A stretch of 64,000 nucleotides of DNA from Candidatus Bathyarchaeia archaeon (GTDB taxonomy: Archaea; Thermoproteota; Bathyarchaeia; 40CM-2-53-6), in NCBI GenBank assembly GCA_049513715.1, contig JBEKVV010000005.1, forward strand, positions 128,001 to 192,000, given 5' to 3'. The notes under the pieces were generated by a model. That model ran no database searches. It was given only the letters and a program-made list of their open reading frames with translations, and was not told where the DNA came from. A program made the position numbers and the translations under genes. Of this stretch, positions 32,033-54,647 are shown in pieces (positions within the stretch are counted from its first letter, which is position 1; every line of letters starts with the position of its first letter).

Positions 32033-32078
32033 TGGTGCGGGGGAGGGGATTTTGACCCCACTTTACCGGTACATATAA
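32033..32078 (-). repeat. Family A copy 1 (arm + tRNA-Leu-like 3' end with CCA)
   Basis: Minus strand: TTATATGTACCGGTAAAGTGGGGTCAAAATCCCCTCCCCCGCACCA. Confidence 0.9.
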
Positions 32079-32175
32079 ACAGGCTTCGTGGGTCCCGTGG
32101 TTCCCACATGGATTTGCCAGTGGGACGCATTTCAAATCATCATGAAATAAGTCGATTCAAGTTCCGTTGTTTTTT

Positions 32176-32234
32176 TACGGTGGGTCGGATTCGAACCCCC
32201 CGTAGTACCCGTGCTTGGCTGGATGAACACCGGA
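32176..32234 (-). repeat. Family C copy 1 (arm + degenerate tRNA 3' end)
   Basis: Minus: TCCGGTGTTC...AGCCAAGCAC...CTACGGGGGGTTCGAATCCGACCCACCGT. Confidence 0.75.
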
Positions 32235-32330
32235 CCGTTCTCGGTTTGGCAGGGTTTGTCGTCGGACAATTCGCTCACAATCTCACTAAATGTGCATCTA
32301 ACTCTAAACCATTTGGCTGATGCCGAACAG

Positions 32331-32358
32331 TCGTGGGGTCGATGGGATACGAACCCAC
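32331..32358 (-). repeat. Isolated tRNA 3'-end fragment (not a full tRNA)
   Basis: Minus: GTGGGTTCGTATCCCATCGACCCCACGA (T-stem, T-loop, acceptor 3' strand). Confidence 0.7.
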
Positions 32359-32453
32359 CAAGATCGGACTTCGAATTCAAAATCAAAGCCAGTAAACAGC
32401 CGTAGATGAGAATTGTAATTTGCAGTGGAAATGAGTGTACAGGGTCCGTCAAA

Positions 32454-32515
32454 TAGTACGCAGGGCCGGATTCGAACCCCCCGTAGCTGTTGTGCTTGGC
32501 TCCGCGAACACCGGA
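32454..32515 (-). repeat. Family C copy 2
   Basis: Minus: TCCGGTGTTC...AGCCAAGCAC...CTACGGGGGGTTCGAATCCGGCCCTGCGTACTA. Confidence 0.75.
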
Positions 32516-32609
32516 TGCTTGCTTTGGGAGAGAAGAATCTAGTAACAAGACTGAAGCTCTCGTATCTTCTCCCGTGGTGAAAAAGCCGCCACTCAAACAG
32601 CACCAGTCG

Positions 32610-32657
32610 GAGATGGGCAGGGGATTTCAACCCCAATTTGCCGGTACATGTAAGCCG
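32610..32657 (-). repeat. Family A copy 2
   Basis: Plus: GAGATGGGCAGGGGATTTCAACCCCAATTTGCCGGTACATGTAAGCCG. Confidence 0.9.
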
Positions 32658-32764
32658 TTGAAACTTGTCACGAAATAATGGAGGGCACAACGTAAGATCC
32701 GACTGCAGAACATTGACGAAAACATACGCTGAGAGGGGAATCAGGGGATAGGTTAAAAACAAAC

Positions 32765-33736
32765 TTGCAACTCAGCCCAATTATGCCTTTAACGCGTATT
32801 TTCTTTACGTCAGATGTTCATGGATCTGATGTGTGCTTCATGAAGTTTCTCAATGCCGCCAAGTTCTACGAAGCGAGCATCCTCATCTTGGGCGGAGACC
32901 TTACTGGGAAGATGATAGTCCCAGTCATAGAACAGTCCGACGGAGAATACACTACCGAGTTTCTTGGCATGCATCAAACACTGAAGACTCGGCAGGCTAA
33001 GGATGAGGTAGTGAAACAGATCCGAGACAGCGGGTACTACCCATACGAAAGCACTCCGAGTGAGGCAGAGAAACTCCGGGAGAACAAGAAACTGGTGGAC
33101 GAGCTTTTTACGAAAGTAATGGTTGATGGAGTTAAGCGATGGGTCTCGATTGCCGAAGAACGATTGAAGGGAACCGGCGTAGAGTGCTACATAAGTCCTG
33201 GAAACGATGACCGATTTGAAGTCGATCCGATTCTAAAAGGATCGCAGAAGATTCATTGCCCTGAGGATGAGGTTGTCTGGTTGGATAAGAACCACGAAAT
33301 GATAACGAGTAGCTGGACGAACCAGACACCCTGGCATAGCCCGCGTGAGACAACAGAGGACAAACTTACTGAGATTTTCGGTAGAATGATCTCAAGAGTT
33401 CAGCGAATGGAAAACTGCATCTTCAACTTACACGTTCCGCCCTACAACACGCCCATGGATTTGGCTCCCGAGCTGGATGAGACGCTGAAACCAGTGGTGA
33501 AGGGTGGGGGGATGAGCATGATTCATGTTGGAAGTACCGCGGTTAGGAGTGCAATTGAGAAGCACCAGCCATTGTTGGGTATCCACGGACACATTCATGA
33601 ATCCCGGGGTTTCGAAAACATCGGAAGAACGCTGGTCCTGAACCCTGGCAGTGAGTACGGGGAAGGAATTCTGCGTGGTGCAATCATTAACCTTGATGAG
33701 AAGAAAGTCAAGAGTTATCTTCTTACCCAAGGATGA
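32765..33736 (+). CDS. Icc-related metallophosphoesterase
   Basis: SDVHGS, GGDLTGK, PGNDD, HVPP, HGHIHE, NPGS. Confidence 0.92.
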   Translation: MQLSPIMPLTRIFFTSDVHGSDVCFMKFLNAAKFYEASILILGGDLTGKMIVPVIEQSDGEYTTEFLGMHQTLKTRQAKDEVVKQIRDSGYYPYESTPSEAEKLRENKKLVDELFTKVMVDGVKRWVSIAEERLKGTGVECYISPGNDDRFEVDPILKGSQKIHCPEDEVVWLDKNHEMITSSWTNQTPWHSPRETTEDKLTEIFGRMISRVQRMENCIFNLHVPPYNTPMDLAPELDETLKPVVKGGGMSMIHVGSTAVRSAIEKHQPLLGIHGHIHESRGFENIGRTLVLNPGSEYGEGILRGAIINLDEKKVKSYLLTQG

Positions 33737-34011
33737 CGGTTGCCAATTTGTCCCTGGATGAAGCACTTTACAGGGTGTGGTTCGTCGTTCGTCCTTAGGT
33801 GGTTTGATCGCTCTCAGGGTAGTAGCTTTCGGACAGAGCTTGGAGGCAAAAGCCGGGATCAGCCAGACTTGAGCCTATTAGTTTTGGTATGCGGGCGACA
33901 TAAGTTGAGCAACCGTAGAATATGATTCAAACCCCCAGGAACATGAGAATCTAGAGATTACAGAAACGAATAAAAGACGGGTTTCGTGAGATCCATATCG
34001 AGTTTTTCTGA

Positions 34012-35223
34012 ATGGAAGTCGACATCCCTAAGCAGGTTTACTACGGGCGAGTCAAGAGAATACGGGAATATTTGCAGGAACACGAACTGAAAGCGCTTCT
34101 GGTCTTCGAAAGTCAAAATCTCATGTACATCTCGGGGTTCATTGATGATTCCGGAAATCCCGTCGAGAGACCGATCGTTTGCGTGGTTCCCCTCGAAGAA
34201 GAACCTTTCATGATACTATGTGAATTGTCCAGGAACCGCGCTCTTTTCGAGATTGAGAGTAAAACGTGCCCAATTGAGGATATACGTTTCTACGCGGAAC
34301 ACCCGCAACAAGTGAATAGGACGTACTACACCACGCAATGGGCAGATATGGTCGTGGATATTCTTGCTGAGAAGAAATGCCTAGGTGGAAGACTCGGCCT
34401 TGATGTTCCACCCGCGAGTGTGGACTCAGTCTTGGCCGTGAAGCTTTCGAAGATGATGGATGCATCAGACCTCCTTCGAGAGATGCGACTCATAAAATGC
34501 AAAGAAGAACTTGATCTAATCAGAGTATGCGGTCCATTTAGCGACTTGGGTCAGGAGGTCTTGAGGCAAGAAATCCATGTTGGAAAGTCGCAACTAGAAA
34601 TCGGTGTGGAAGCCACCACTGCTATGCGACGAGAAGGCGCCAAGAAATATCCAGACGCCTGCATCCGCGCCACAGCCGCAGTATTTGGATCAGGCCCAGT
34701 ATACAGCGTAATGCCTGACGCTGTGCGAGGAGTGGGTAGGAAGCTTGAGCGAGGTGACAACTTGATAGATATCACCGATTTTCGGTTGAACATGTACGGC
34801 GTTGAGAACGAGAGGACCTTCATTATTGGACCCGCCTCTGAAAAACAGGTGAGAGCGTTCAACGTAATGGTTGAAGCACAGGAAAGAGCTTTCGAGGCAG
34901 AAAGACCCGGAAACAAGATGTCAGACGTGGATGCAGCCGCACGAAAAGTCTTTGAAGATGCAGGCTACGGCGACTGTATCTCCCATAGAACATATCACGG
35001 AATGGGGCTTCACATGGGTCAGTATAATCATGAATATCCCTATCTCACATCGTTCATGGAACGCAAAATCATGTCTGGAATGGTGTTTTCCTGCGAGCCG
35101 GGAATCTACGTTCCGGGGGTGGGCGGTTTCAGACATTCTGATACTGTCATCATAACTGATAGTGGACCAGAGAGAGTCACTAACTTTCCGAGAGATCTAG
35201 AATCTTTGACTGTGAAAACATAA
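34012..35223 (+). CDS. M24 (Xaa-Pro peptidase/creatinase fold) protein
   Basis: MRLIK, ENERT, HGMGL, HEYP, CEPGIY, FRHSDT. Confidence 0.9.
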   Translation: MEVDIPKQVYYGRVKRIREYLQEHELKALLVFESQNLMYISGFIDDSGNPVERPIVCVVPLEEEPFMILCELSRNRALFEIESKTCPIEDIRFYAEHPQQVNRTYYTTQWADMVVDILAEKKCLGGRLGLDVPPASVDSVLAVKLSKMMDASDLLREMRLIKCKEELDLIRVCGPFSDLGQEVLRQEIHVGKSQLEIGVEATTAMRREGAKKYPDACIRATAAVFGSGPVYSVMPDAVRGVGRKLERGDNLIDITDFRLNMYGVENERTFIIGPASEKQVRAFNVMVEAQERAFEAERPGNKMSDVDAAARKVFEDAGYGDCISHRTYHGMGLHMGQYNHEYPYLTSFMERKIMSGMVFSCEPGIYVPGVGGFRHSDTVIITDSGPERVTNFPRDLESLTVKT

Positions 35224-35485
35224 ACGGTTTCCGAAAGGCTTCCTCCCGCAGCTTTCCAATGACGTCCTCGGACATTTAGAGAATATCTTGAGTTTTTCCA
35301 CCGTGGTTTCGTTAAACGTATACGAGCGATATTCGAACCACGATGTGATTAGTTTCTGATGCAGTTGAAAGTTAGATTGTTGTTGATTTGTTGACTTTTG
35401 TAAACAATGACACACGTTCGGTCGTAGCCAACGGAAGCGTTAAATACAATGATCCCAGGAGCTAACCTTTCCGAGAAGATATTTT

Positions 35486-37078
35486 ATGTCGAAGGCGAAG
35501 CCGATCGACACACAAGTATACGTTCGTGAAGCGACTGGCCTTGTTCGAGAACTTGGGGCTAAAGATATTTTCATTTGGACAATTGTTTGGTATCCGTTAT
35601 TTGCTTCTTATGTTAACTATTTCTGGTATACGCCTGCGCTTGTTCATAATGTAAACTACTACCTTGCGTTTGGTCTTTGGTTTATTCTCTTCTGCATTTT
35701 TCCGCCTGCATTATGGTGGATGATGATTTCTATCATGCCCAAGACGGGCGGTGACTACGTCTTCACTTCAAGAGCCCTTCATCCAGCGATAGGATTTTCC
35801 GCGAGTTTTTGTGTGACCTTTGCATTGGCTTTGACCGCGATCTCTGGTGGAACTTATTATGGTTTGGCTGAGACAGCCGTACAATTGGAAACGGCTGGTC
35901 AGATATCAGGTAATCAAGCTGTCACAGCAGCTGGTTTACTCATAGATCCTTTTGCGGGCGGCAGCTTGCCTCTGATCTTCGCCTTAGGGGTGATTGTACT
36001 CGTCATTGGAGCTGCATTCGCGTACTTTGGCAGTGGTGTCTTTAACAAGGTAATTTGGGTAATTTTCGGAATAGGTCTCGTCGGTCTCGTAATTGAAGTT
36101 CCCATCCTACTCATGACTTCAAGATCTACGTTCGCTGCTGCCTATGCTCAATACTATTCGGGTGGCGTTCAAGGTGTATTTGCAGCAGCGCAGAAGGGAG
36201 GGTATGTGCCGGGGTATTCGATGGCTGCCACTCTCCTAGCGGTTCCAGTGATTGCGGGAAGCCTGGGGCCCTACCTCGTCCTAGGGAACGTTGCAGGTGA
36301 AGTAAAGAACGTTAAGAGAAGTTATCTGCTCGGACTTTGGGGAGCAATCGTATTGTCGGCTGTTGTTTGGGTAGTTCTAACATTCCTGACGGATCGAGTT
36401 ATTGGCCTAGACTTCATAGAGGCTTGGACCGTTGGCCCGGGAGGCGGCTTTCCGCCGGTCGTGAGTGCGCTATTAACTGTCGTCGCACCTAATCTCACAT
36501 TGAACATCGCTGTGGCACTAATACTCCTGATCTCGAACATTGGTTTCTCGTACCTGGGATTCGCATTCGCAAGTAGGGCGATGCTCGCTTGGGCATTCGA
36601 CCGGGTCGCCCCTGCGAGGCTTGCATATGTAAATGAGAAGTATCATTCGCCGGGTGTGGCCATCCTCGTAACGCTCCTAATTTCATTGTCGGGATGGACT
36701 CTCATCGAGTTTACAAGATTCACCTCCATCGTCTTGAATAGCGACGTGCTGAAGTACGTGGCGTGGGGTGTCGTCAGCCTTTCCGCAGTCATAATGCCCT
36801 TCAGAAAGAAGGAACTCTTTGATAGGTCTCCAGTGAAATACAGAATTGCAGGCGTCCCCGTCATTTCCATATTGGGATTGGTGTCCTTCTTCCTCTACGC
36901 ATACTACATCATATTGTTTACAACAACGAACCTCTTCTTCTCGCCGTCAGTAACACAAGTCTATTTTCTGGCATTTATGTTCGTAATTGCGATTGCGGGA
37001 TACTTTGTCGCATATGCGTACCGGAAATCGAAAGGAATCGACATTACGAAAGCGTTTGAAGAGCTACCGCCAGACTAA
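35486..37078 (+). CDS. APC family amino acid permease
   Basis: REATGLVRE, MPKTGGDYV, SRAMLAWAFDR, FEELPPD; many TM helices. Confidence 0.92.
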   Translation: MSKAKPIDTQVYVREATGLVRELGAKDIFIWTIVWYPLFASYVNYFWYTPALVHNVNYYLAFGLWFILFCIFPPALWWMMISIMPKTGGDYVFTSRALHPAIGFSASFCVTFALALTAISGGTYYGLAETAVQLETAGQISGNQAVTAAGLLIDPFAGGSLPLIFALGVIVLVIGAAFAYFGSGVFNKVIWVIFGIGLVGLVIEVPILLMTSRSTFAAAYAQYYSGGVQGVFAAAQKGGYVPGYSMAATLLAVPVIAGSLGPYLVLGNVAGEVKNVKRSYLLGLWGAIVLSAVVWVVLTFLTDRVIGLDFIEAWTVGPGGGFPPVVSALLTVVAPNLTLNIAVALILLISNIGFSYLGFAFASRAMLAWAFDRVAPARLAYVNEKYHSPGVAILVTLLISLSGWTLIEFTRFTSIVLNSDVLKYVAWGVVSLSAVIMPFRKKELFDRSPVKYRIAGVPVISILGLVSFFLYAYYIILFTTTNLFFSPSVTQVYFLAFMFVIAIAGYFVAYAYRKSKGIDITKAFEELPPD

Positions 37079-37209
37079 GCGGCCGCGCATTCCCGGGCTA
37101 AGCGGGTCCCAGTCCTCGGACCCGAAAAAGTAATCGCTAGAGTTGTGGGTTTGCGACCGGTGTGTGGCCGATTTGTTCGGGGTTTGTTCGTGGGTTTGAG
37201 GTTGAGAAA

Positions 37210-37254
37210 CTTCAGGGATGGAGCAGGGGATTTCAACCCCAATTTACCAGTACA
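37210..37254 (-). repeat. Family A copy 3
   Basis: Plus: CTTCAGGGATGGAGCAGGGGATTTCAACCCCAATTTACCAGTACA. Confidence 0.88.
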
Positions 37255-37341
37255 AGCAAGAAATGAGTCCGCCTATTTTCTTGCCTTTTAGTGAGAGATG
37301 AGCCCGAATGGATACCCTGGAACTCCAAATCTGGGTACTGT

Positions 37342-38874
37342 TCATTTGCGCCTTTGGTGCGAACGCTTCATCACCAGCAGTGTCAAAGCAGCACCTGTTG
37401 AAACGACAAGAACGATGACAATTATAGTTAGTTGCTCAAGCGAAAGATCAAGGGTTGGCCCTGCTGAGGATAGCGTCCCGATGTTCTGCTGACTCGTAGT
37501 CTGCGTAACGGATACAGTGGGATTCTTTGAGGCTGCGTTTGCCATCTCTGATGCTGATTTCGCAGCCTGCATGGCATCTACGAATCCACCTTCACTGAAT
37601 GACGATTGGGCCTTGGTGAGCTGATTCTTTGCCGCTTCGAGACCGTTGTCTCTAGATTCGATTTGCGCTTTGGAGATGGCGTCTTGTGCGCTTGCGATTA
37701 TGTTGTTTGCTTCATTCGCTTGATTCCCCGTCAAAGCATTTGCTATCATAACCCTGTAAGCGTAACCCGTTCTGTCAACCACGATGATAGAGAAATCTTT
37801 GGCTTGATTGACTAAGGCCGGAATGTTGCTTCGGCCGATGTTGAATGGGGCATCGAACAAGTCCTTTTCTGGATCTGGATTGCTGTTGGGATGAGAGTCT
37901 ACGACTTTGACTTGCCCTTCATCAGATTGGCTGCAACATTCAAGAGTCCATGTTCCATCAACGGTGTAGATGAGGACGCCAAATTGTGGGTCCGGGTAGT
38001 TGGAAGATGAATACAAAGAGAGAGATTGGTCTTCACCAAGCTTCTCTCGGACCTCGACGTAGTATGTCAAAGTAGAGCCCGGCAAGTGAATCCTAGCCAG
38101 ATACGTTTTGCCTGTGGCATTTTCTAGGGCATCGATGGTGATTGTCCTCTGAACACTGTCGCTAACGTCTACTATCTGATTTTTCTGGAGCCACCCGAGT
38201 CTTATCAGAGACCATGAAGTGAACCCGCCGAGGCTCCAAGACATGAGGTCCCATGGTCCAAGCCAAACAGCAGATGGTTTGCTCTGCTCAGCAAGCCCGT
38301 AGCTGTACAAATCTGGAAGGTGGCCTAGTGCGTGACCAAGCTCATGGCAGTAAGTGAAGGAATCCGTATTTTCGTTTTCGAAAGAAACGCCGATGCTTGG
38401 GAACGCATGAGGCCAGACTTCACCCGCATAGACAATGAACGTAATCGCATATTTGCCAGCGCCTATTCCCAACTGCCCCAGACGACCCCGTGCTGTTGCG
38501 TCGACCGTTTGCATCTGGCCATCATCGTAGTTCCATTCAAACAGCTTCATCTCCTTCACCTTAACCGGCAACGTAATCCAATTCGGTAGTACCTCAGCTG
38601 TTAGCTTCAACTTCCCATAAGAAACCGTGGTGTAGTATTCCTGAACTTGCGTCACTGTGATCTCCCGCAATTCATCAATTGACTTTGTGTGAGGCAAATC
38701 TGTGAAATCAAAGAAAGCCACCAAATACTTTGCTTCGTTGGGAACCGTATACGCTTGTGCACTCATCGACTTGTTGAGCCATGGTAAGTAGCTTGTAAAG
38801 ACCAATAAGAGAATAATCAAGCAAGCTAACTTGCTCGCAGCTGACTTACTACGGAAACAAGATTCGGCAGACAT
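37342..38874 (-). CDS. Membrane-anchored M6 (InhA-like) metalloprotease
   Basis: HELGHALGHLPDLY, WDLMS, LGW; N- and C-terminal TM. Confidence 0.88.
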   Translation of the reverse strand: MSAESCFRSKSAASKLACLIILLLVFTSYLPWLNKSMSAQAYTVPNEAKYLVAFFDFTDLPHTKSIDELREITVTQVQEYYTTVSYGKLKLTAEVLPNWITLPVKVKEMKLFEWNYDDGQMQTVDATARGRLGQLGIGAGKYAITFIVYAGEVWPHAFPSIGVSFENENTDSFTYCHELGHALGHLPDLYSYGLAEQSKPSAVWLGPWDLMSWSLGGFTSWSLIRLGWLQKNQIVDVSDSVQRTITIDALENATGKTYLARIHLPGSTLTYYVEVREKLGEDQSLSLYSSSNYPDPQFGVLIYTVDGTWTLECCSQSDEGQVKVVDSHPNSNPDPEKDLFDAPFNIGRSNIPALVNQAKDFSIIVVDRTGYAYRVMIANALTGNQANEANNIIASAQDAISKAQIESRDNGLEAAKNQLTKAQSSFSEGGFVDAMQAAKSASEMANAASKNPTVSVTQTTSQQNIGTLSSAGPTLDLSLEQLTIIVIVLVVSTGAALTLLVMKRSHQRRK

Positions 38875-38935
38875 GTTCCGAATTACCGTCTTCTAGCGTG
38901 TTAAATGCAATCTATATAGCACATGTAGGTTCACG

Positions 38936-38987
38936 TTCAGAGATGGAGAAGGGGATTTTGACCCCAATTTATCGGTACATATAAGCC
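38936..38987 (-). repeat. Family A copy 4
   Basis: Plus: TTCAGAGATGGAGAAGGGGATTTTGACCCCAATTTATCGGTACATATAAGCC. Confidence 0.9.
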
Positions 38988-39027
38988 GGTTCAAATTGCG
39001 TTGCCCGCACCAGCTGACCCACACACA
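38988..39027 (+). repeat. Family B copy (tRNA-like core + GACCCACACAC arm)
   Basis: GGTTCAAAT-TGCGTTGCCCGC-ACCA-GCTGACCCACACACA. Confidence 0.85.
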
Positions 39028-39042
39028 GCCAAGATCGTTTCG

Positions 39043-39936: not shown

Positions 39937-40046
39937 TACACTTCTGAGAATACCCGCTCCGACTTTAGGAGTTATTCTTGTAAGGCGTCTTTCATTTCAT
40001 GCGCAAGACTGAAGACTCTCCAAGGGCGCGCCGTTTCTAGTGTGTG

Positions 40047-40068
40047 CGCACCAGCTGACCCACACACA
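40047..40068 (+). repeat. Family B partial copy, identical to 39006-39027
   Basis: CGCACCAGCTGACCCACACACA (22/22 identity). Confidence 0.9.
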
Positions 40069-40086
40069 AAGGACTAGATGTCTAAG

Positions 40087-40118
40087 TCAGAGATGGGTCA
40101 GGGGATTTTGACCCCACT
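40087..40118 (-). repeat. Family A copy 5 (arm truncated)
   Basis: Plus: TCAGAGATGGGTCAGGGGATTTTGACCCCACT. Confidence 0.85.
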
Positions 40119-40222
40119 AGCCTGGTCTTGAGTACGTTTAACAGTAACAGTGTAACAGTAATCTATCACGTCAAATGTCTCATTTTGAGATTATTGCGAT
40201 GGGTTAGTCGGTGGTTCATGTT

Positions 40223-40264
40223 GGTTCAAATTCTGATGCTCGCACCATTAGACCCCACACACAC
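40223..40264 (+). repeat. Family B copy
   Basis: GGTTCAAAT-TCTGATGCTCGC-ACCA-TTAGACCCCACACACAC. Confidence 0.82.
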
Positions 40265-41510: not shown

Positions 41511-41651
41511 TCAACACATCTCGACTACCACTCCTCAGAAGCCTCGAAATATACGACTTTTTTTCAGTAGTGAAAACTCCTCAGGACAGTGAATTACGTA
41601 GGGTAATTTATGTGACCTCTAGAAACACGTACTCAGCTTAGAGGCGGTTGT

Positions 41652-42440
41652 ACTACGAAAGTTGTTGTCACGTCCGATCATCACTTGGGTTACGCAAATG
41701 CTGACAAGACAGCGTTCAACGCATTCCTCGACAACCTTAGTCAAGAAAGCGATGTTACGCACATGGTTCTTCTTGGAGATGTGGTGGATATGTGGAGGAG
41801 GGATGCTGCAGGGGTATTCCTGGAACACCACGACACAGTTGCTAAGCTTCTTGCTCTCAAATCCAAAGGGGTCCAGGTATTTTACGTGGCGGGAAATCAT
41901 GATTATCATGTCGTGGATCTTGTCAACCCAGCATATCCCCTTGAGTTCAGGAAGGAATTGAGCCTGACTGATGGACAGTTCAATTATCGTTTCGTTCACG
42001 GCTACCAGTTCGATCCTGAACAGAAGATGCCTTTGATGGCATTCTTGTGTCGAGTAATGTCCGACCAAGGCGGTGCCCTAGAGAGTAACTTATGGGTAGA
42101 TTTCAATAGCGTGAACAATATTTTCTCGAAGATAGAACCCTCTTTCGTAAAAGCAGATCTAGCAGCGATGGCTGAGCGGCTTCACCGGCGCCCTGAGGAT
42201 AGACTAAAGGAGTCTCTCAATAAAATCAATATGACTGCTTGTAATGAAGTCAAGCCTGGGGAAGTTCTCATATTTGGTCACACCCACGTTCCATTCGTCA
42301 ACAAAGCGGAAAACGTAGTGAACACCGGTTCTTGGGTTAAAGACGCTGTCATCCACAACACCTACGTGGAGCTTAGCGGTGGAAAGCCCAGACTCTTCGT
42401 GTACGGTGGACATGAAATAACTGAACGCACAGAACCTTGA
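41652..42440 (+). CDS. Calcineurin-like metallophosphoesterase (LpxH-like); start codon appears frameshifted
   Basis: SDHHLG, LGDVVD, GNHD, HG, GHTH, NTGSW; frame open upstream of TTG 41685 but has no in-frame start. Confidence 0.85.
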   Translation, partial: TTKVVVTSDHHLGYANADKTAFNAFLDNLSQESDVTHMVLLGDVVDMWRRDAAGVFLEHHDTVAKLLALKSKGVQVFYVAGNHDYHVVDLVNPAYPLEFRKELSLTDGQFNYRFVHGYQFDPEQKMPLMAFLCRVMSDQGGALESNLWVDFNSVNNIFSKIEPSFVKADLAAMAERLHRRPEDRLKESLNKINMTACNEVKPGEVLIFGHTHVPFVNKAENVVNTGSWVKDAVIHNTYVELSGGKPRLFVYGGHEITERTEP

Positions 42441-42639
42441 CATCCTTCTTGTTCTCAAACTTTTCTTGCATAACAGCGTATCTCCAAGTGTGATTTTCCG
42501 CTTTTGTTTTGTTTCTGTGCTTTCACTCCTGACAAGCATGACTCGTGCGAGGAACTGAAACATGTTTTGCGTTCAACTGTTAACAAGAAAGAAGAAGAGA
42601 GAAACCACGGTCTGCTGTCTCCCTCTGCGGCGGATTGGG

Positions 42640-43290: not shown

Positions 43291-43322
43291 CTTCAGGGAT
43301 GGGGCAGGGATTTTGACCCGAA
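43291..43322 (-). repeat. Family A copy 6 (arm truncated)
   Basis: Plus: CTTCAGGGATGGGGCAGGGATTTTGACCCGAA. Confidence 0.8.
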
Positions 43323-43386
43323 CTAAGTCGGAGTTAGACTATTACTGTTCGCTACAATAATCACTGGTTGTGGAGACGTCGACGGA

Positions 43387-43812
43387 ATGAAGCTTCTGTT
43401 TGTCTGTTCTGGCAATACGTGTCGAAGCCCTATGGCTGAAGGAATTGCTCGCAAGATGTTTGAAGCCAATGTTCACGTCGAAAGCGCTGGAACCCACGCC
43501 CATGTTAGGGACCCCCCGGCCACCAATGCTGTGAAAACCATGCGTGACAAATTCGGAGTGGACATTTCGTCACATCGATCCCGGAGCGTAAATGACGTGC
43601 ACATCGAGGAGTTCGATTACATTGTTCCAATGGCTGATGTTGTTCAAGACGATCTGAAGGAAAGTTTTCCAAGTTTAGGCGAAAAACTGATGCCCTCATG
43701 GAGAATAGATGATCCCTACCGTGGCGACCTCCGCACATATGAAGAAACAGCCGCCAAAATTCAGAAACATATGGAAGAGCTTTCCATTTTCCTCAAGAAA
43801 ACAAAGAGATGA
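43387..43812 (+). CDS. Low-molecular-weight protein tyrosine phosphatase family
   Basis: FVCSGNTCRSPMAE, SAGT, IDDPY. Confidence 0.93.
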   Translation: MKLLFVCSGNTCRSPMAEGIARKMFEANVHVESAGTHAHVRDPPATNAVKTMRDKFGVDISSHRSRSVNDVHIEEFDYIVPMADVVQDDLKESFPSLGEKLMPSWRIDDPYRGDLRTYEETAAKIQKHMEELSIFLKKTKR

Positions 43813-43844
43813 TTCGGAGAACTATGCGTGCACAGTGAGTGAGT

Positions 43845-43881
43845 AGGGGATTTGAGCCCCAATTTACCGGTACATATAAGC
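43845..43881 (-). repeat. Family A copy 7
   Basis: Plus: AGGGGATTTGAGCCCCAATTTACCGGTACATATAAGC. Confidence 0.88.
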
Positions 43882-43911
43882 GCTTAAGCGAGAATTCGCA
43901 AAGGCGGTTCC

Positions 43912-47009: not shown

Positions 47010-47010
47010 G

Positions 47011-47062
47011 CTTCAGGGATGGGTCAGGGGATTTTGACTCCAATTTACCGGTACATATAAGC
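47011..47062 (-). repeat. Family A copy 8
   Basis: Plus: CTTCAGGGATGGGTCAGGGGATTTTGACTCCAATTTACCGGTACATATAAGC. Confidence 0.9.
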
Positions 47063-47084
47063 TAGCAATGCAACGAGCAACGTC

Positions 47085-47178
47085 AGTTCAAATTACGTTG
47101 TCCGCACCGTCACTGCCACACACACTCAAAATGACGGTTCAAATTCCACCGCTCACACCAGTAGACCCCCACACACAC
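47085..47178 (+). repeat. Two tandem family B copies
   Basis: AGTTCAAAT-TACGTTGTCCGC-ACCG...CCACACACAC (47085-47125); GGTTCAAAT-TCCACCGCTCAC-ACCA-GTAGACCCCCACACACAC (47136-47178). Confidence 0.8.
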
Positions 47179-47231
47179 AGGAACAAGTCCCGCTCAAACG
47201 ACGATAAGACGCCACTAGTTCACAATAGTGA

Positions 47232-47726
47232 TTGATGTCATTCTTATATGACATGAATGTGGTGCAGGAAATTACTATCCCACCAACTGAGGAGAAATGT
47301 ATAATGGGAAAACGAAATCAGGTTCAGCACGTTATTGAGTGGACTATCTCTGGCGGAAAAGCCGATGCCTTCAAACATAGTGTCCCAGTGGTTTCAATTG
47401 TGATCTTGGTCATTATTTTTTCCACTTTTCTAGCAAGTCAATTAGGCAGAAATGTCTGGACGAGTACAATTCTGATGGTTCTGTTTGGGGTCATCGGAAT
47501 AGCTGGACTTGTTAAACTTAGAAATCCTGTAATCTTAGAACTTGGTGCTATTGGTTTCGTGGCAGATATCGTGTGGGAGCTTTATGGAACTGGAAATCGA
47601 TTGTGGAGTTATTATCATTCGCCGTTTTACATGATAGGTGGAACTTTGCCAATAGAAATAGCAGTGTTATACTTTTTCTTAGGGATGACTGCAGCGGTTT
47701 ATGCACTATACAGATTGGAAAAATAG
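47232..47726 (+). CDS. Hypothetical membrane protein (possibly chimeric N-terminus)
   Basis: Several TM segments, WELYG...WSY...PIEI; start uncertain. Confidence 0.6.
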   Translation: MMSFLYDMNVVQEITIPPTEEKCIMGKRNQVQHVIEWTISGGKADAFKHSVPVVSIVILVIIFSTFLASQLGRNVWTSTILMVLFGVIGIAGLVKLRNPVILELGAIGFVADIVWELYGTGNRLWSYYHSPFYMIGGTLPIEIAVLYFFLGMTAAVYALYRLEK

Positions 47727-47772
47727 TGAAGCATCGCTTTCAATCTGTTCCTCTCAGTCACATGATCCGGTG

Positions 47773-47800
47773 GTGTGTGGGTCTGGTGGTGCCCACACAC
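47773..47800. repeat. Family B arm (minus) forming a 9-bp inverted repeat
   Basis: GTGTGTGGG-TCTGGTGGTG-CCCACACAC. Confidence 0.7.
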
Positions 47801-47832
47801 ACTAAAACGACGTGGGAACGACGTACGACGAC

Positions 47833-47857
47833 GGTTCAAATCCCTCTCCCGGCGCCA
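47833..47857 (+). repeat. tRNA(Ser)-like 3'-end fragment (att-like), not a full tRNA
   Basis: GGTTCAAATCCCTCTCCCGGCGCCA; no upstream D or anticodon arms. Confidence 0.8.
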
Positions 47858-48087
47858 ATTTGTTGGTACGTGTAAATAGCTGATTATGGCAATAATGATG
47901 AGCATTCTAGTAACGAAACTCATCATATGTCCTCTTCACCAAGGAGCCTATTTGTGTATGTCACTTCTCACAATCATGATGAGTCATGTGAAGGGATTGA
48001 ATGTGAGCCCGTTTAGGTGGCAGCATGATTCTACCCATGCCGAGGTCTTAAGTACTTAGCATAAGCATGTAGCTGTTAGAAACTTTC

Positions 48088-50859
48088 TTGAAGCCTATTA
48101 CTCGGGCTTTGTTGGTTCTGCTTATTTTGACGTTGGCAGCCGGCGGCATAGTTTACTACTGGATGTTCGCCCGGCAAACTATTCCCGTGATTACCACGGG
48201 CCAGCCGGCAGCGCAATTCACTTTCTTTCTTAACCCCCCATTTTTCCACGTTGCCGCCGGTGAAGGAAAAAACATTACCACGTTCGTACAGCGAACGAGC
48301 GGTTTTTCGGGTGCTGTTAAGATTGAAATTGTGAATCCGCCGAGTTGGATAACCTACAACGCTATGACGGTCGACACAACCGTTTCAAACGCCACTTTCG
48401 CGATTATTGCTTCGCAGGATGCTCCTAAGACTGAATTGAATCTGACAGTGAGGGCGTCATCGGCGGGTGCCGCCGACCAAGTCGCAACATTGGACATGAA
48501 GGTTGTCGGTGTCTCCACTGTAACGTCAGACCATGGCTCAGCGGTTCTGTATGATACGACAAAGTTTCTCGATACCGACACGTTGAAGTCGCTCACCGCC
48601 TACTCAAATGGGACATTTGTTTTCTCCGCTGTCACTCCGCAACTGCAAAGTCTTGCTCGCGGCGACGTAATGGTGGTTCAGCCATCAAGCACACCTCTCG
48701 CAAAATTCGGTTTGGTACGCCTCGTTCTGTCGGTAACTCGGGAAGGAGGAGGTGTGATTGTGCAGACTATTCAGGCGACGCTGTTCGATGAATTGCAGCA
48801 GCTCCATGTTGGCTTTGGCAATGCTACATCGGTGCAGGCAGCACCCGGATCACTTGCTCCCGCCGCGATCCCGGACAATCCGAATCTCCCTACCGGCACA
48901 ACGCCAAACGTTGTTTTCGAGGACTGGTTTACCCTTTACAGTGGCCATTTTGGGACAGGTGGAGAGCGGTCTATTCCGGGCGGTGACGTTACCTTCTCAG
49001 CGGACGCGGGTATTGGAGTTGAGCTGGGACCTATGATCGACATTGCATGGTCAGTAGGACATCCGATTCCATCACTGGACCAGGCTAGATTGAATGTTAT
49101 TTATTGGGAAGATTTGACGCTTGCAGTGAAAGGAAGCGCAGGATCCCAACTGAACTATGAAGACGATAATCTACAACAGCTCTACTACGGCTCGATCCCG
49201 CTTGTTCCGGGCGTTTGGCTCGTCATATCAGCTACCCTGGAAGGTAAGGCCTCGGGAACGCTGCAACAGAACATCAACGGATACTTCCACCAAGGTATGA
49301 ATTATGAAATGGGCCCAACTTACAGCTCCGACGAGGGGTGGTTCTTTTACTACCGCTGTAACTCAGAAACTCGGGGGGAATGCGACCCACCGACATTCGA
49401 CAACCCACAGTTCTCGATCTCGGCAGGTTCTGGTTCTGATGCTACGATTGAGTTGGGCCCCATGGTGAAGGTCAGTGTGGACGCGGACATAGGCGTAGCT
49501 GATGCGGCTGGCTTTGCGTCGCTGTCAGGGCTCTTGTTCGTGACATTGAAATCACAGATTCCCAGACCCTCAGACAGACCGCACTCCTGGTGGCTTGAGT
49601 GGGGGCTTGACGGAGATTTCGAACTAGGACTCTCCTTGTCCGTTGGCATCTCGGTAGCAGGATACGAGATTGGGTTCTCGACGTGTCTGTGTTCCCCGCC
49701 TGCCCAAGGCAGATTGATTGGACCTGGTACACTATTCAACGGATTCGCCATTCCACCATTGGTTACTATCACATCCCCAAAGGACGGCTCAAACCTCGAC
49801 TACAACTCGCTCACGATATTCCCTTCCTTCACTGCAACTGCCACTGGAGAAGACGGTGATCTCTGCAGTGGACCTCCGCAGAACCTCATATGGTCTGATG
49901 AGTATGGTCAAATTGGTACTGGCTGCACTCTTCCCAGCGTGACGTTCAATCAGGATGGTGTTCACCATATCCAATTTACTGCAACAGACAGTGCTGGCTC
50001 AAGTTCAAGCGCTACGGTAACCGTATCAGTAATCCTAGCCAAGCCTGACGTGTACATAACCAAACCCCTTGACAATGAACAGTTCATGGTGGATGAACCC
50101 GTGACGCTTGAAGGCTACGCAATGCTGAAACTGACCAATCTTCCGTGCAACGGTGCTTCAGGGAAATTGGTTTTCAATATCTGGTTGTACGCCAATATCC
50201 CGTCCCAACCGGAATCCGGAACACAGTACTGCACCGCCACAACGACCTTCGACAAGCCAGGAACTTACTCCATCTTCCTAGTCGCCCAAGACAGTTCCGG
50301 AAAAACAACGGGCTTTTCGAAGCACGTAGAAATCAACATAATCGAGCCTTCGCAAGGTACAAACTACCCACCCAGCGTTCAGATTATTTCACCAAACGAT
50401 CAACAATCCTTCCTCTACTTGAATTGGAAGATCACTCTGGATGGAACCGTATTCGACTGGGAGGGAGACCCGCTCGGAACCTATACTTGGTCCTACGTTC
50501 CTCTATCCCTATCACAATCACCCGTAACGATAGCGACGGGCCCCCTTCCACCCTCCTCACAATGCACTAAAGATACACCATGCCACGTGACCGCCTCCCT
50601 AAACACGAATGACTATTGCAAGGACAATCCGACGGGCGGAGATCTGGCAATAGTGCTTGAGGCAACAGAAACAGGACCCGTCGAACAAACGGGTAAGAGT
50701 CAACCGGTCACGATTCATCTGTCCTGTGAAAAGCAAGTAGCGATCATCACACCAATCATTAACCAACCGCCTCCAGCAGCACATCCGAATGTCAGCGTTT
50801 CCGCAAACGGGCCTCAACGACGAATTCTCGAAAACCATTCGTGCAAGGTATGCCCATGA
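48088..50859 (+). CDS. Large secreted/membrane-anchored protein with PKD/Ig-like repeats
   Basis: N-terminal TM; repeated P.V.I.SP.D...ITL.G units; Cys pairs. Confidence 0.8.
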   Translation: MKPITRALLVLLILTLAAGGIVYYWMFARQTIPVITTGQPAAQFTFFLNPPFFHVAAGEGKNITTFVQRTSGFSGAVKIEIVNPPSWITYNAMTVDTTVSNATFAIIASQDAPKTELNLTVRASSAGAADQVATLDMKVVGVSTVTSDHGSAVLYDTTKFLDTDTLKSLTAYSNGTFVFSAVTPQLQSLARGDVMVVQPSSTPLAKFGLVRLVLSVTREGGGVIVQTIQATLFDELQQLHVGFGNATSVQAAPGSLAPAAIPDNPNLPTGTTPNVVFEDWFTLYSGHFGTGGERSIPGGDVTFSADAGIGVELGPMIDIAWSVGHPIPSLDQARLNVIYWEDLTLAVKGSAGSQLNYEDDNLQQLYYGSIPLVPGVWLVISATLEGKASGTLQQNINGYFHQGMNYEMGPTYSSDEGWFFYYRCNSETRGECDPPTFDNPQFSISAGSGSDATIELGPMVKVSVDADIGVADAAGFASLSGLLFVTLKSQIPRPSDRPHSWWLEWGLDGDFELGLSLSVGISVAGYEIGFSTCLCSPPAQGRLIGPGTLFNGFAIPPLVTITSPKDGSNLDYNSLTIFPSFTATATGEDGDLCSGPPQNLIWSDEYGQIGTGCTLPSVTFNQDGVHHIQFTATDSAGSSSSATVTVSVILAKPDVYITKPLDNEQFMVDEPVTLEGYAMLKLTNLPCNGASGKLVFNIWLYANIPSQPESGTQYCTATTTFDKPGTYSIFLVAQDSSGKTTGFSKHVEINIIEPSQGTNYPPSVQIISPNDQQSFLYLNWKITLDGTVFDWEGDPLGTYTWSYVPLSLSQSPVTIATGPLPPSSQCTKDTPCHVTASLNTNDYCKDNPTGGDLAIVLEATETGPVEQTGKSQPVTIHLSCEKQVAIITPIINQPPPAAHPNVSVSANGPQRRILENHSCKVCP

Positions 50860-52121
50860 CTAGGCCAACCGTACTTGGTCGCCGCACCCTGCACCTCGTA
50901 GCAATCATCGGGCTGCTCATCGTATTGGTTCAAGTGCCAGCGACACATGCGGCAACGCTCACACTCACCTCAGACCCTGACTGCGTCTCCCGTGGTCCAG
51001 ACCAGGTGGATTGTTTCGCTAGAGGACAGGACAACGCGCTCTGGCACTTATACCGCAAGGCAGGAACATGGTCCAGTTGGGAGTCCCTTGGAGGCAACCT
51101 AACCTCAGGGCCGTCGGCAACCTCATGGGGACCAGACCGTCTAGACATGTTTGCTAGAGGACCCGACAATGGGTTGTGGCACGTGTGGTGGGATGGATCA
51201 CTTCATCCATGGGAGTCTTTGGGCGGCGCAATTACAAGCAACCCAGATTGCACTTCCATCCCAACTACCCAGGAGATTTTCTGCTTCGCCAGAGGTCCCC
51301 AAAAGGCTCTCTGGTACACTGGCTTTTCCGGCGGAACCTGGACCACATGGAAGTCCTTAGGTGGGATCCTAGCCTCAGGCCCAGGGGTTTCATCCTGGAA
51401 GGATGACGTGGAAATCTTCGTGAAAAGCACGGATAACGCGATGTGGCAGATATCCATGGGAGCGGGAGGGAGCTTAAGCCAGTGGCAGAAAAGGGGTGGC
51501 GCACTTACCTCGGACCCTGACGCTGTCTCATGGGGGCCGAACCGTATTGATATTGTTGTGAGAGGTCCTGACAATGGGATCTGGTACAAGTGGATGAACG
51601 GAGGAACATGGAGCAATGGCTGCCAGGGCTGTGACGGATATTATAATCTAGGCGGTAAATCAATTTCAGGACCCACAATCGCGTCCAGAGATGTGAATAG
51701 CCTTGATGTCTTTACTGTAAGCACGGACAATCACCTCTATCACAAAGGATGGAACGGAGCCGTTTGGAGTCCCTGGGAAGCCATCCCGATGACAATGGCG
51801 CCCACAGGCATGACAACGACGACGAGCCAGCCAACATCTGTCAGTAGCGGCTCCACGACGATTTCTCCAATATCGATCGCCAGTAGTAGCTCTACCTCTC
51901 CGGTAGTAACTCCATCCGTCACAGTCACCTCGACACCTACGTCATTGTTCACTCAATCACCGAGCACACAAACTCCTAACCAGACTGGAATAGGGGAGAT
52001 TTTGGCTACGCTGCAGCCGACTGACCTGATCGTAATCGGCGGCATTGTTGTCATTGCGGGTGTCTTGATTGCGCTCGTGTTGAGAGTACGCGGAAAACCA
52101 GCATCAGACACTAGTTCATGA
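50856..52121 (+). CDS. PLL/fucose-lectin-like beta-propeller surface protein with Ser/Thr stalk and TM
   Basis: Repeats of FARG.DN.LWH..W.SLGG.LTS.P; ATGA overlap with upstream gene. Confidence 0.85.
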   Translation: MTRPTVLGRRTLHLVAIIGLLIVLVQVPATHAATLTLTSDPDCVSRGPDQVDCFARGQDNALWHLYRKAGTWSSWESLGGNLTSGPSATSWGPDRLDMFARGPDNGLWHVWWDGSLHPWESLGGAITSNPDCTSIPTTQEIFCFARGPQKALWYTGFSGGTWTTWKSLGGILASGPGVSSWKDDVEIFVKSTDNAMWQISMGAGGSLSQWQKRGGALTSDPDAVSWGPNRIDIVVRGPDNGIWYKWMNGGTWSNGCQGCDGYYNLGGKSISGPTIASRDVNSLDVFTVSTDNHLYHKGWNGAVWSPWEAIPMTMAPTGMTTTTSQPTSVSSGSTTISPISIASSSSTSPVVTPSVTVTSTPTSLFTQSPSTQTPNQTGIGEILATLQPTDLIVIGGIVVIAGVLIALVLRVRGKPASDTSS

Positions 52122-52373
52122 GGGAAGGGCATAGTCTACAGCATCCAATGCGGATCCCAAAATCCCAATGGCAATGAGTTCTGTGGAAAATGTGGCACTG
52201 AAGTTCAAGACTAGTGCCCGGTTCGTCCCTAGTATGTTGGTGCGCACACCCACTTTTTCACGCTCCTCGCTTCGCTTTGTGTGATATGACTGGTGCGCGA
52301 CGACGACGAAAAGACGGATGGTCTGTGGGTTGGGGTTTGTTGTTAGGTGGTTTGTGGTTGAGTGGTTAGTGGC

Positions 52374-52400
52374 GTGTGCGCACCACTATACCCACACACA
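52374..52400 (+). repeat. Family B partial copy
   Basis: GTGTGCGCACCACTATACCCACACACA; 12-bp inverted partner TGGTGCGCACAC at 52238-52249. Confidence 0.75.
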
Positions 52401-52532
52401 TTCATCGCGGAGGATGGGAAGAGGTTGCTGAAGGAGTGGCTCACAGAACGAGAATCGATGCTGGAAAAAGCAGGGCTAGAGGATTCAGACTATTTCTTCC
52501 TTAACTGGCGTCGGAAATCGAGATGCAGGTAA
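52389..52532 (+). pseudogene. Probable tyrosine recombinase/integrase internal fragment
   Basis: YPHTFIAEDGKRLLKEWLTERESMLEKAGLEDSDYFFLNWR resembles the patch II-III segment; no start codon, no catalytic boxes. Confidence 0.5.
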
Positions 52533-52600
52533 CAGCCGCGGAACACGGGCATGATGCACAGGCTTAAGTTGCCTATGATAGAGCTATCGGTGATAGGCCA

Positions 52601-54415
52601 TTGTTCTTCCGTGTCTTGAGTTCAAACCGAGCTTTGGCTTTGGTCGTTGCCTCGATGGTGATATTGTCTGTTATTTCCCCTACCGTGAGAGTTGGTGCTA
52701 TAACCACGATACTTGATCAGCAGTGTTCAACTGTTGGTGGATTTTACCTAAACGGCATCGGTGCATCTGAGCCCGCAGGGCAGACGTTCACGCCGACCCA
52801 AACATCTGTGGTAGCCTTCTCAATTAACATCTATTCGACAAGCCCCTTTCCCACACCTATGACGGCGAAGATACTAGCGGGAGGAATCGGTGGAGCGGTA
52901 CAGGGGTCCGTTAACTTCAACGTTCCGGCCGTTTTCGGTTTGCCAAGTGGCGACTGGTTCAAAGTGCAGTTTACCAGTGGAGTTCCGGTGATCCCTGGTT
53001 CGATTTATGCGCTTGATCTCACCGACAATCTCGCCTCTTCTGGCATTAAGTGGAATGGCTGTAAGGATAGCTATCCCGGGGGAAAGGCGTACTCCAGCGG
53101 GAGCTATAACACATATAACACAGTCGGAGCCTCTTACAGTTTCAAGGAGTATGCGTTCGGCCTGACGGTGACACCGGTCGCGACGCCGGATTTCTCAATC
53201 TCATCCTCTCTTGCCGCCATACCGGTAACACAGGGAGGAAGCAATACAGCTACAATTACGGTGACTTCGATTAACGGACTCAATTCGGCAGTTGACCTGT
53301 CTGCTTCTTGGGTTGGGTCCGCACCGACTGGCGTGACATTCACGCTACCGACCCCGATAACGCCACCGTCAGGAAGCACTGCGACATCACCATTGATAAT
53401 TGTGGCTACCGGAAGCGCCTCCACAGGAAGTTTCACCCTTCGTGTGACTGGGACGAGCGGATTGCTCAGTCACGATGTCATACCTGACATAACAATACAA
53501 GTGGCGGCAGTCACAACAAGCACAACAACACCACCAACACCAGCTACGGATTGGGCAGTTCTCTCCGTTTCGCTAAGCCCTTCTGCTCCACATGTCGGTG
53601 ACCCGGTCACATTCAGTATGGTAGTGACCGCGCTCTCGTCTCCGGGACCATTTCCGCAGAGCTTTGCTGCTGTTTGCCAGATCGACGGAGTATCCTGTGG
53701 TGGTGGCTCTCATACCTACCCTGGACCACTGGATACTCCTTTCACTGTAAGCGCGCAAACACCTTGGATTGCGACGGTTGGTACGCATACTCTGACCTGG
53801 GGAGTCGCCACGATCCCAGTGGGTCTCGACCCGGACAAGAGTAACAATATGAAGAGCACTACTTTCACGGTGGCACAAGCATCCTCACAGCAAACGACGA
53901 CAGCCTCTTCGACCGCGTCTCAGGCTCCTGATTTTCAGGTTAATGTGAGTCCGCCATCCCAAACCGTGCTTCAAGGCGAGACGACTTCATATGCGGTTGA
54001 TGTTGCTGGTTTGAACGGGTTCAATTCGCAGGTTTCATTGTCTGTCTCAGGATTGCCTCCGGGCGCGAATGGAGTCTTCAGTAACCCCTCGGGAACTCCA
54101 AACTTTGCTTCAACCCTCACGGTCATATTATCGGGGGATGTTGCAACTGGTTCGTATACGTTGGTGGTGACCGGGAGTGGAGGAGGATTAAGCCACGTGG
54201 CCAACCTAGTTCTAACAGTTAACGCAGCCGTAGTAACGCAAACCTCAGCCTCCTCAACTGAAACCGTAGCGTCTTCAACTCAAACATCAAGCGACCTGAC
54301 GAGCATGATCCAACAAAACCAACTCCTCATACTCGCAGCCGTAGTCTTGTTGGCAGCCGTCATAATTGCGGTAGCGTTGCGTGGCCGACGAAAACCAACC
54401 TCAACCACCAACTAA
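52601..54415 (+). CDS. Secreted, C-terminally anchored surface protein with Ig/CARDB-like domains
   Basis: Signal peptide, two PDF.I/V..S..V.QG repeats, CARDB-like segment, Thr-rich stalk, TM + RGRRK. Confidence 0.85.
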   Translation: MFFRVLSSNRALALVVASMVILSVISPTVRVGAITTILDQQCSTVGGFYLNGIGASEPAGQTFTPTQTSVVAFSINIYSTSPFPTPMTAKILAGGIGGAVQGSVNFNVPAVFGLPSGDWFKVQFTSGVPVIPGSIYALDLTDNLASSGIKWNGCKDSYPGGKAYSSGSYNTYNTVGASYSFKEYAFGLTVTPVATPDFSISSSLAAIPVTQGGSNTATITVTSINGLNSAVDLSASWVGSAPTGVTFTLPTPITPPSGSTATSPLIIVATGSASTGSFTLRVTGTSGLLSHDVIPDITIQVAAVTTSTTTPPTPATDWAVLSVSLSPSAPHVGDPVTFSMVVTALSSPGPFPQSFAAVCQIDGVSCGGGSHTYPGPLDTPFTVSAQTPWIATVGTHTLTWGVATIPVGLDPDKSNNMKSTTFTVAQASSQQTTTASSTASQAPDFQVNVSPPSQTVLQGETTSYAVDVAGLNGFNSQVSLSVSGLPPGANGVFSNPSGTPNFASTLTVILSGDVATGSYTLVVTGSGGGLSHVANLVLTVNAAVVTQTSASSTETVASSTQTSSDLTSMIQQNQLLILAAVVLLAAVIIAVALRGRRKPTSTTN

Positions 54416-54514
54416 ACCCTAACTGATCCATCAATTCGAACCCTCGCTGAGCATAGTGTGCATATCTATCGGTGCGGTCGCCTTGAGTCGGCCGGCCGTC
54501 GTTCACGTAATTTC

Positions 54515-54557
54515 GTGTGTGTGTGGGTCCAGTGGTGCGGCCGCCGGAACTCGAACC
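54515..54557 (-). repeat. Family B copy with tRNA(Gly)-like core
   Basis: Minus: GGTTCGAGT-TCCGGCGGCCGC-ACCA-CTGGACCCACACACACAC. Confidence 0.85.
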
Positions 54558-54599
54558 TACCTACGTGAATCCTTGGGACGCAGGGAAATCATCTAACTC

Positions 54600-54647
54600 G
54601 TGCGGGGGAGGGGATTTCAGCCCCACTTTACCGGTACATATAAGCCG
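54600..54647 (-). repeat. Family A copy 9 (tRNA-Leu-like acceptor retained)
   Basis: Plus: GTGCGGGGGAGGGGATTTCAGCCCCACTTTACCGGTACATATAAGCCG; near-identical to copy 1. Confidence 0.9.

Follow-up and report, generated by a model that had tools for sequence, protein, structure and literature searches.

Co-oriented repeats in a Bathyarchaeia genome are attachment sites of a tRNA-Leu/Ser integrase, and many of them may serve as cassette sites

Why should a short repeat that ends like a leucine transfer RNA (tRNA-Leu) recur nine times, always in one orientation, within a 64,000-nucleotide stretch of an uncultured archaeal chromosome? The stretch, hereafter the window, is positions 128001 to 192000 of contig C5 in the 2.79-Mb genome of Candidatus Bathyarchaeia archaeon (GenBank GCA_049513715.1; G000:C5:128001-192000, where G000 denotes this source genome). 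The repeats, called family A, are named here by their window positions: 32033, 32610, 37210, 38936, 40087, 43291, 43845, 47011, and 54600. An earlier reading of the sequence alone had placed all nine copies and their common orientation correctly, along with the consensus, a GGGG/CCCC frame around a variable loop, the palindrome TACCGGTA in one arm, and two kinds of right end, one tRNA-like and the other a separate tail. It had also proposed that the repeats are tyrosine-recombinase attachment (att) sites derived from tRNA-Leu, and comparison with relatives makes this identity close to certain. From these sequence comparisons, we read the family-A repeats as att sites of an integrase specific for tRNA-Leu and tRNA-Ser genes and the tail-type copies as likely cassette sites for gene units without an integrase, a combined reading to which we assign a probability of roughly 60%.

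The att-site proposal depended on a host tRNA ending in CCCCTCCCCCGCACCA. Such a tRNA exists at G000:C5:220141 on the minus strand, 28 kb beyond the window; it is intact, class II, and intron-bearing, with a Leu-type end. Directly 3′ of it lies TTTTACCGGTACACATAA, which is the repeat arm inverted, followed by a gene for a 174-amino-acid (aa) accessory protein and a gene for a 319-aa tyrosine recombinase with SAM-like and catalytic domains (G000:C5:218588-219544; L001:1453-2412). The tRNA, inverted arm, accessory gene, and recombinase together span G000:C5:218588-220270, and the tRNA-Leu locus is conserved within the genus. ARAGORN failed to detect this target tRNA and reported none in the window either; a T-arm pattern recovered the one on C5. 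Inspected by eye, the region G000:C5:220100-220330 seems to contain two introns, and the anticodon is probably TAA.

This arrangement recurs well beyond one genome. Close homologs of the recombinase have a tRNA end and arm upstream in eight of nine loci, and the ninth lies on a short contig. Accessory-gene loci, 22 of which were drawn from 301 genomes of the class Bathyarchaeia, carry a tRNA end with NWTTACYRGTA in 18 cases (16 by pattern and 2 by eye, with 1 negative and 3 not assessable). The recombinase is found 3′ of the accessory gene in 14 of the 22, and five of the remaining loci leave no room for it. One further locus, from a scan of genome contigs, is in a Hadesarchaea record. At the level of sequence, the tRNA end, NWTTACYRGTA, the accessory gene, and the XerA-like recombinase form a conserved unit, and the targets of this module are leucine and serine tRNA genes.

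Among solved structures, the recombinase best matches Thermoplasma-type XerA (5hxy, E 2e-16), and residues R160, K188, H263, R266, and Y298 are invariant among six aligned sequences. The accessory protein belongs to no Pfam family and matches only unnamed archaeal clusters in the Atlas; the four open reading frames (ORFs) 3′ of the G000 recombinase likewise have no Pfam family. A predicted model of the accessory protein (predicted local distance difference test 78, predicted template modeling score 0.41) consists of an extended start, two short helices, a 45-residue helix, and a winged helix. The start appears ribbon-helix-helix-like by eye on this model, and a fold search with the model returned nothing at E 0.001 and only weak winged-helix matches.

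A matching far end, consisting of an arm with a displaced tRNA end, is present 5.4 to 29 kb downstream in G000:C3 and in the relatives G002, G003, G031, and G123, and one metagenome site is joined to the very 247 bp that lie directly 3′ of tRNA-Leu in G014. These far ends and this fusion, together with the loci combining a tRNA, inverted arm, and module, identify the family-A arm as the att arm of the two-gene tRNA-Leu module, with copies 32033 and 54600 as attR-type sites. By sequence, the other end of the element is a mirror arm, TACYRGTAAAN-TGG(T/G)G, joined to a displaced tRNA end. Of the 301 class genomes, 74 contain the left-half pattern, and none contains a reversed-pattern control. The integrase gene is whole, with its att site 600 bp upstream, and so is not split by the att site.

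The suggestion that the two outermost copies are the ends of an island did not survive. Both are of the attR type; the corresponding attL, made up of the tRNA and the arm, is found 37.5 kb past 54600, whose right half is part of a small unit ending at 47011. Copy 32033 was also considered as a true host-side border and was ruled out, since the DNA beyond it is repeated mobile sequence. Behind tRNA-Leu, the stretch preceding a common gene block (matched by blastn at 65 to 67%) measures about 82 kb in G000 versus about 6 kb in G014 and about 3 kb in G004, which places the window midway in a long accreted region.

Within the window, all nine copies lie on the minus strand. Copy 32033 (32030..32080) consists of the arm, the left core TGGGGTCAAAA, the spacer TCCCCT (32044-32049), and the exact host tRNA-Leu 3′ end CCCCCGCACCA. 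Copy 54600 (54595..54645) has a tRNA-Leu end in which CCA has become CGA, and its right half is found with three different left sides; these outer two had been called near-identical, and they agree at 45 of 51 nucleotides (nt). Tail-type sites are 32610 (32605..32655), with a tail one base shorter; 37210 (37211..37261), with partial decay of the outer arm; 38936 (38936..38986), which abuts an opposite-orientation site of a second att family, family B, at 38988-39027; and 47011 (47012..47062), whose left half is joined on contig C6 to the right half of 54600. The palindromic arm had been ascribed to every copy and is found in seven; 40087 (40086..40136) has core and tail without it, and 43291 (43292..43342) has core and tail with a different left side at the edge of a phosphatase cassette. 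Copy 43845 (43831..43881) combines a complete arm and core with an atypical right half, or tail. Variation in the 7-nt loop, which had been noted, is limited to its first four letters; AAT, which makes up the rest, hardly changes within the genus. A repeat finder sorted seven of the nine copies into a single 51-nt family and assigned the tail part to another. There is also a stray attL-like site in the opposite orientation (47827..47880, plus strand), with a tRNA-Leu-like end (TCCCTC TCCCGGCGCCA) and a decayed inverted arm.

A matrix built from the nine copies gave 56 matches above 14 bits in G000, a count that includes the window copies and a few overlaps, versus 3 in each of three base-shuffled genomes, and a stricter left-half matrix defined 43 full sites. 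These are clustered (37 of 43 within 10 kb of another), mostly co-oriented (26 of 28 close neighbors), and mostly intergenic: ORFs of at least 90 aa contain 11 of 93 sites versus 110 of 150 random positions. By type, G000 has 43 attR-like and 3 attL-like sites. Contigs assembled from four public sequencing runs, which may be the source of G000 and so check the assembly only, cross six of seven tested sites at flat depth. Names of homologs, together with the run records, suggest that this member of the Bathyarchaeia comes from peat. The distance to a contig end is no more than 32 kb for 33 of the 43 sites, so that some arrays may extend further than the assembly shows or be connected to one another.

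In 30 of the 43 G000 sites, including 6 of the 9 window copies, the tRNA end is replaced by CCCCT-NNN-CCATCTCTGAR. Such ends had been taken for mutated tRNA ends; they are instead a conserved motif of their own. Across 63 nonredundant flanks, tail positions carry 1.3 to 2 bits each, conservation stops sharply at GAR, and no second conserved motif follows. The tail pattern is present in 10 of the 301 class genomes, eight of which are in the genus of G000. With TCC|CCT as the center, the tail in reverse complement corresponds to the T-arm of the target tRNA on its 5′ side. A reversed matrix from 59 nonredundant tails, with no tRNA sequence included, scores 9.7 bits exactly at the mirror position of both tRNA genes that have the spacer TCCCCT; these two rank first among 31 T-arms, against a background of 4.5e-4 per position, and every shift scores negative.

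The outer arms are symmetric about the same center across the class, with TACYRGTAAAN-TGGTGCG mirroring CGCACCA-NTTTACYRGTA, and in most loci of the class the left core reads TGGTGCG.., which is the tRNA end in reverse complement. Two independent symmetries, of arms and of tail, point to a dif-like 11+6+11 layout, from which we infer a core in which a 6-bp spacer (TCCCCT or TCCCAC) is flanked on each side by an 11-bp recombinase site.

Exchange at the sites is visible in how flanks are combined. A set of 159 unique sites was assembled from G000 and 125 metagenome stretches; some stretches share an organism of origin, and only identical entries were merged. Pairs within this set share only the right flank in 25 cases, only the left in 11, and both in 3, which at the level of sequence shows an exchange of left and right halves between loci at the site. 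One empty/filled pair was found among 260 sites: L098 holds a 714-bp unit whose flanking halves are joined in L093/L094, and all sites involved are tail type. Units between sites measure 0.4 to 7.6 kb and often carry several genes.

In the window, a small cassette body (47026..47801, plus strand) encodes a 164-aa membrane protein without a Pfam family (47232-47726) and carries family-B sites; a second copy on C6 is 97.6% identical and circularly permuted. On C6, the ends of the larger unit 47011-54600 are fused at the core, and the unit is opened at family-B sites instead. The C6 copy of the unit is missing 6.7 kb of extra cargo (47801..54517), which encodes three large secreted or surface proteins between two family-B sites. 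In the public runs, depth is flat and doubles over the shared 0.8 kb, and the fused C6 junction is single copy in three of four runs, which indicates that C6 holds a second, circularly permuted chromosomal copy. A one-gene cassette with a low-molecular-weight phosphatase (43387-43812, within 43308..43850, plus strand) also occurs in G012 at 91% identity, where the unit 43308-43815 has other neighbors, starts at the site core, and is followed by a decayed site.

These observations make active cassette traffic through tail-type sites likely, and a mechanism can be proposed. Integrase-carrying elements would enter the tRNA gene and leave attR behind, with the recombinase presumably binding both core sites and the accessory protein possibly binding the outer palindrome TACYRGTA, by analogy to helper proteins of the archaeal element SNJ2. 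The tail would act as the second core site, repeating the left arm of the tRNA in mirror form, so that tail-type copies could let the tRNA-side enzyme insert and excise integrase-free gene units downstream of the tRNA. A circle carrying one tail would destroy the tRNA on entering it and would therefore be kept only at attR-type or tail-type sites, and older units would be pushed outward into co-oriented arrays. The arrays of G013 and G004 have the predicted form, runs of tails with a tRNA-type site at the distal end. The enzyme is absent from most of the searched genomes that have sites, and such arrays would then depend on visiting elements. Five genomes of the genus, including G013, G014, G016, and G018, yielded no recombinase above the archaeal XerA cutoff, and the 98% complete G018 yielded none even at E 1e-5. 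A search of viral contigs found no exact match to one left-half pattern, a weak indication that no viral vehicle is involved.

Several observations weigh against this reading. The metagenome stretches were retrieved by the left-half pattern itself, and the tail classes were set by a pattern taken from the same data. The single empty/filled pair can also be read as a deletion by homologous recombination between 45-bp repeats. No free circle occurred in assembled contigs of the four runs, where the fused junction is that of the chromosomal C6 copy. Only the phosphatase cassette, of all intersite units, was recovered complete from clearly distinct surroundings with its two ends, and many such units are cut by other att families. 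The arrays of G019 and of G000:C4 have tRNA-type sites inside. Close homologs of the recombinase were found in 7 of 41 genomes searched, many of them incomplete, versus sites in 26. The recombinase has RGD at the His/Trp-III place in all six aligned sequences, reading L-R-G-D where Xer enzymes show L-G-H. Finally, in independent pairs the loop is inherited with the left flank in 4 of 9 and with the right in 8 of 18, versus 16% of unrelated pairs, and this even inheritance does not place the crossover point. A first count that put the crossover to the right of the loop had been inflated by redundant pairs and was not confirmed in independent ones.

The strongest competing explanation is passive: the sites would be scars of decayed elements accreted behind the tRNA, like those of cis-mobilizable elements (CIMEs) or tycheposons, with a tail that spread once and later deletions or conversions by homologous recombination, and with no dedicated cassette traffic. 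The tRNA-type copies are indeed true displaced tRNA ends, and the great length of the G000 stretch relative to G014 and G004 is what accretion would give. The left half of 47011 differs inside the core from two other occurrences, as conversion would produce, and scattered partial tRNAs in tycheposons and accretion in CIMEs are known from published descriptions. Tandem integration at an occupied tRNA, however, predicts two-armed junctions, and both arms are present at only 5 of the 159 unique sites. Decay also has difficulty explaining how 63 distinct right flanks come to start directly behind a conserved tail, or why that tail mirrors the left arm of the target tRNA. We regard passive accretion as clearly less probable.

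Another arrangement keeps the same system and moves the crossover: the 7-nt T-loop would be the overlap, as the sequence-only reading had it, with the GGGG/CCCC stems as core sites and mismatched overlaps tolerated. Loops handed on through mismatched overlaps have a precedent in the coupling sequences of Tn916. Few loop types recur, and the 44% association of loops with either flank fits this idea; the T-loop is also a known crossover sublocation (PMC8371274). Against it, arms and tail are symmetric about the spacer center, which lies 3′ of the loop, and not about the loop center. Across six attL/attR pairs, the 6-bp spacer is common to all and the T-loop is identical in only one. In G149, purines GGG(G) stand where the loop has AA, requiring at least five mismatches in seven, and the left stem is TGGGG or TGGTG where the right is CCCAC, so that pairing is not kept. 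A T-loop overlap is improbable.

It is very improbable that the repeat serves as a mobile promoter, regulatory site, or small RNA duplicated ahead of accessory genes. The arm does have a conserved TATATA-like stretch, and attL has an AT-rich, TATA-like stretch behind the palindrome, some 50 nt upstream of the accessory gene, but arm-side genes point away in 36 and toward the arm in 49 of 85 cases at scattered distances, folding z-scores of −0.63 to +0.86 (eight strands of five of the nine sites) give no stable hairpin, Rfam has no match in window positions 30000 to 56000 at E 0.5, and the halves are exchanged at the site. A bacterial promoter scan, with a model ill suited to archaea, returned chance-level counts.

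Among known systems, the module belongs with archaeal tRNA-targeting elements that keep an intact integrase. Type II elements of this kind (XerA/XerC/pNOB8, SNJ2, and thaumarchaeal cryptic elements; PMC8371274, PMC5861418, and PMC6563490) share an intact simple tyrosine recombinase beside a restored tRNA end, a displaced far tRNA end, variable cargo, and arrays formed by reuse of the site. The family-A system has the intact recombinase at a restored tRNA end and, in six pairs, the attL/attR repeat with a displaced tRNA end. It differs in that a genome can hold dozens of sites with a single arm, the majority of which end in a mirror tail unrelated to the tRNA end, and in short elements in which no replication or packaging gene was found. 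SNJ2 is described as having two cotranscribed helpers, one coiled-coil and one winged-helix, proposed to aid the integrase (PMC5861418); here one protein joins a predicted coiled coil to a winged helix, a likeness of helper architecture only. An SSV-type (suicidal) integrase was rejected because the gene is whole and not split by att.

The family-A arrays as a whole are a variant of tRNA-targeted island accretion. CIMEs, decayed elements that undergo site-specific accretion with integrative and conjugative or integrative and mobilizable elements, have attL, attR, and two-armed internal junctions, according to PMC5704250; tycheposons have replication modules and partial tRNAs scattered in islands, according to bioRxiv 10.1101/2020.12.28.424599. 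Both resemble these arrays, as described there, in integrase-free units stacked behind a tRNA, newer ones pushing older ones outward, with partial tRNAs inside. Unlike those of CIMEs, the junctions here are one-armed and mostly non-tRNA, and unlike in tycheposons, no replication module was recognized, cargo in relatives having been read by eye only. No conjugation gene appeared among 139 plus 63 Pfam-scanned proteins, with no search aimed at such genes.

Integrons, including archaeal ones, share a layout in which a recombinase heads a row of co-oriented sites with small units between them, as well as site clusters without an enzyme, as set out in bioRxiv 10.1101/2022.02.06.479319. Family A likewise has co-oriented sites bounding integrase-free units that change order. 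It differs from integrons in that its sites come from a tRNA att site, the recombinase scores 42.5 bits against the IntI profile TIGR02249 (cutoff 265), the folding z-scores reveal no attC-like hairpin, and genes have no common orientation on the arm side or on the tail side (36:47). XerA/dif and Xer-site modules such as pdif are alike in the inferred core, since dif has an 11+6+11 geometry (PMC5357621), and in partial dyad symmetry and outer accessory sequence. By comparison, the enzyme here is patchy, always beside a tRNA, and below the XerA cutoff (181 versus 220 bits), and the sites are many and in direct orientation; a housekeeping XerA was rejected on that score, on its homologs in 7 of 41 genomes, and on 43 sites in place of one dif. 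PMC8138268 gives the context of this classification. The literature searched, supplements and most subscription papers excepted, contains no description of the family-A site family.

Tentatively, these features could together describe an integron analog of Bathyarchaeia that derives from a tRNA and acts on double-stranded DNA. In its dedicated cassette site, a mirror copy of the left core would stand in for the acceptor half of the tRNA, integrase-free cassettes would enter, leave, and change order with the tRNA spared, and back-to-back att families of other integrases would give each circle several entry keys, an extension we hold at somewhat less than even odds.

Alternative chromosomal targets of the tail, with a tRNA-like left side, were absent among 38 tail matches. 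Other att families share the region. Family-B sites lie at 38988-39027, 40033-40068, 47136-47178, and 52365-52400 on the plus strand and at 47773-47800 and 54515-54557 on the minus strand; they consist of a T-loop, a degenerate acceptor, GCACCA, and then CT(G/A)GACCCACACAC, the motif behind the tRNA at G000:C3:86187, and stand back to back with a family-A arm in 16 of 188 nonredundant left flanks. Family D (window 32085-32115; G000:C5:206516, C3:427310, and C1:892317) comprises displaced ends of the tRNA at C3:166058, which adjoins a 480-aa recombinase, and by a loose pattern lies directly upstream of family-A arms in 16 of the 188 flanks.

Further repeats and copies surround these sites. Positions 32176-32234 and 32457-32515 are two 59-nt copies with T-loop-like GGTTCGAATCC on the minus strand and no Rfam match; this repeat is also on C4 and in three relatives. 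Positions 31634-32000 belong to a 300- to 450-bp segment on C1, C5, C6, and C7 (74 to 96% identity), often beside a family-A site and possibly containing a short basic ORF. A metallophosphoesterase gene (41629-42442) has a 98.5% copy on C3 and 89 to 91% copies in relatives, a recent mobile unit without family-A boundaries. At 59961-62054 are two divergent, inverted pyridoxal phosphate-enzyme paralogs that share 64% of their DNA sequence; the second has a frameshift close to its start. An M42 peptidase gene near this pair recurs 12 kb farther along.

Bathyarchaeia occur in abundance, have for the most part not been cultured, and lack genetic tools. For the question of how they gain and reorder accessory genes, family-A sites mark joints of their variable regions and account for part of the assembly breaks, and the analysis names an enzyme, a helper, and a 50-bp site for direct in vitro work. 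If tail-type sites do not recombine, they would still constitute a well-resolved att-site family missed by annotation tools; if they do, integron-like arrays would have been reached here independently, and the system would offer a small candidate tool for integration in archaea.

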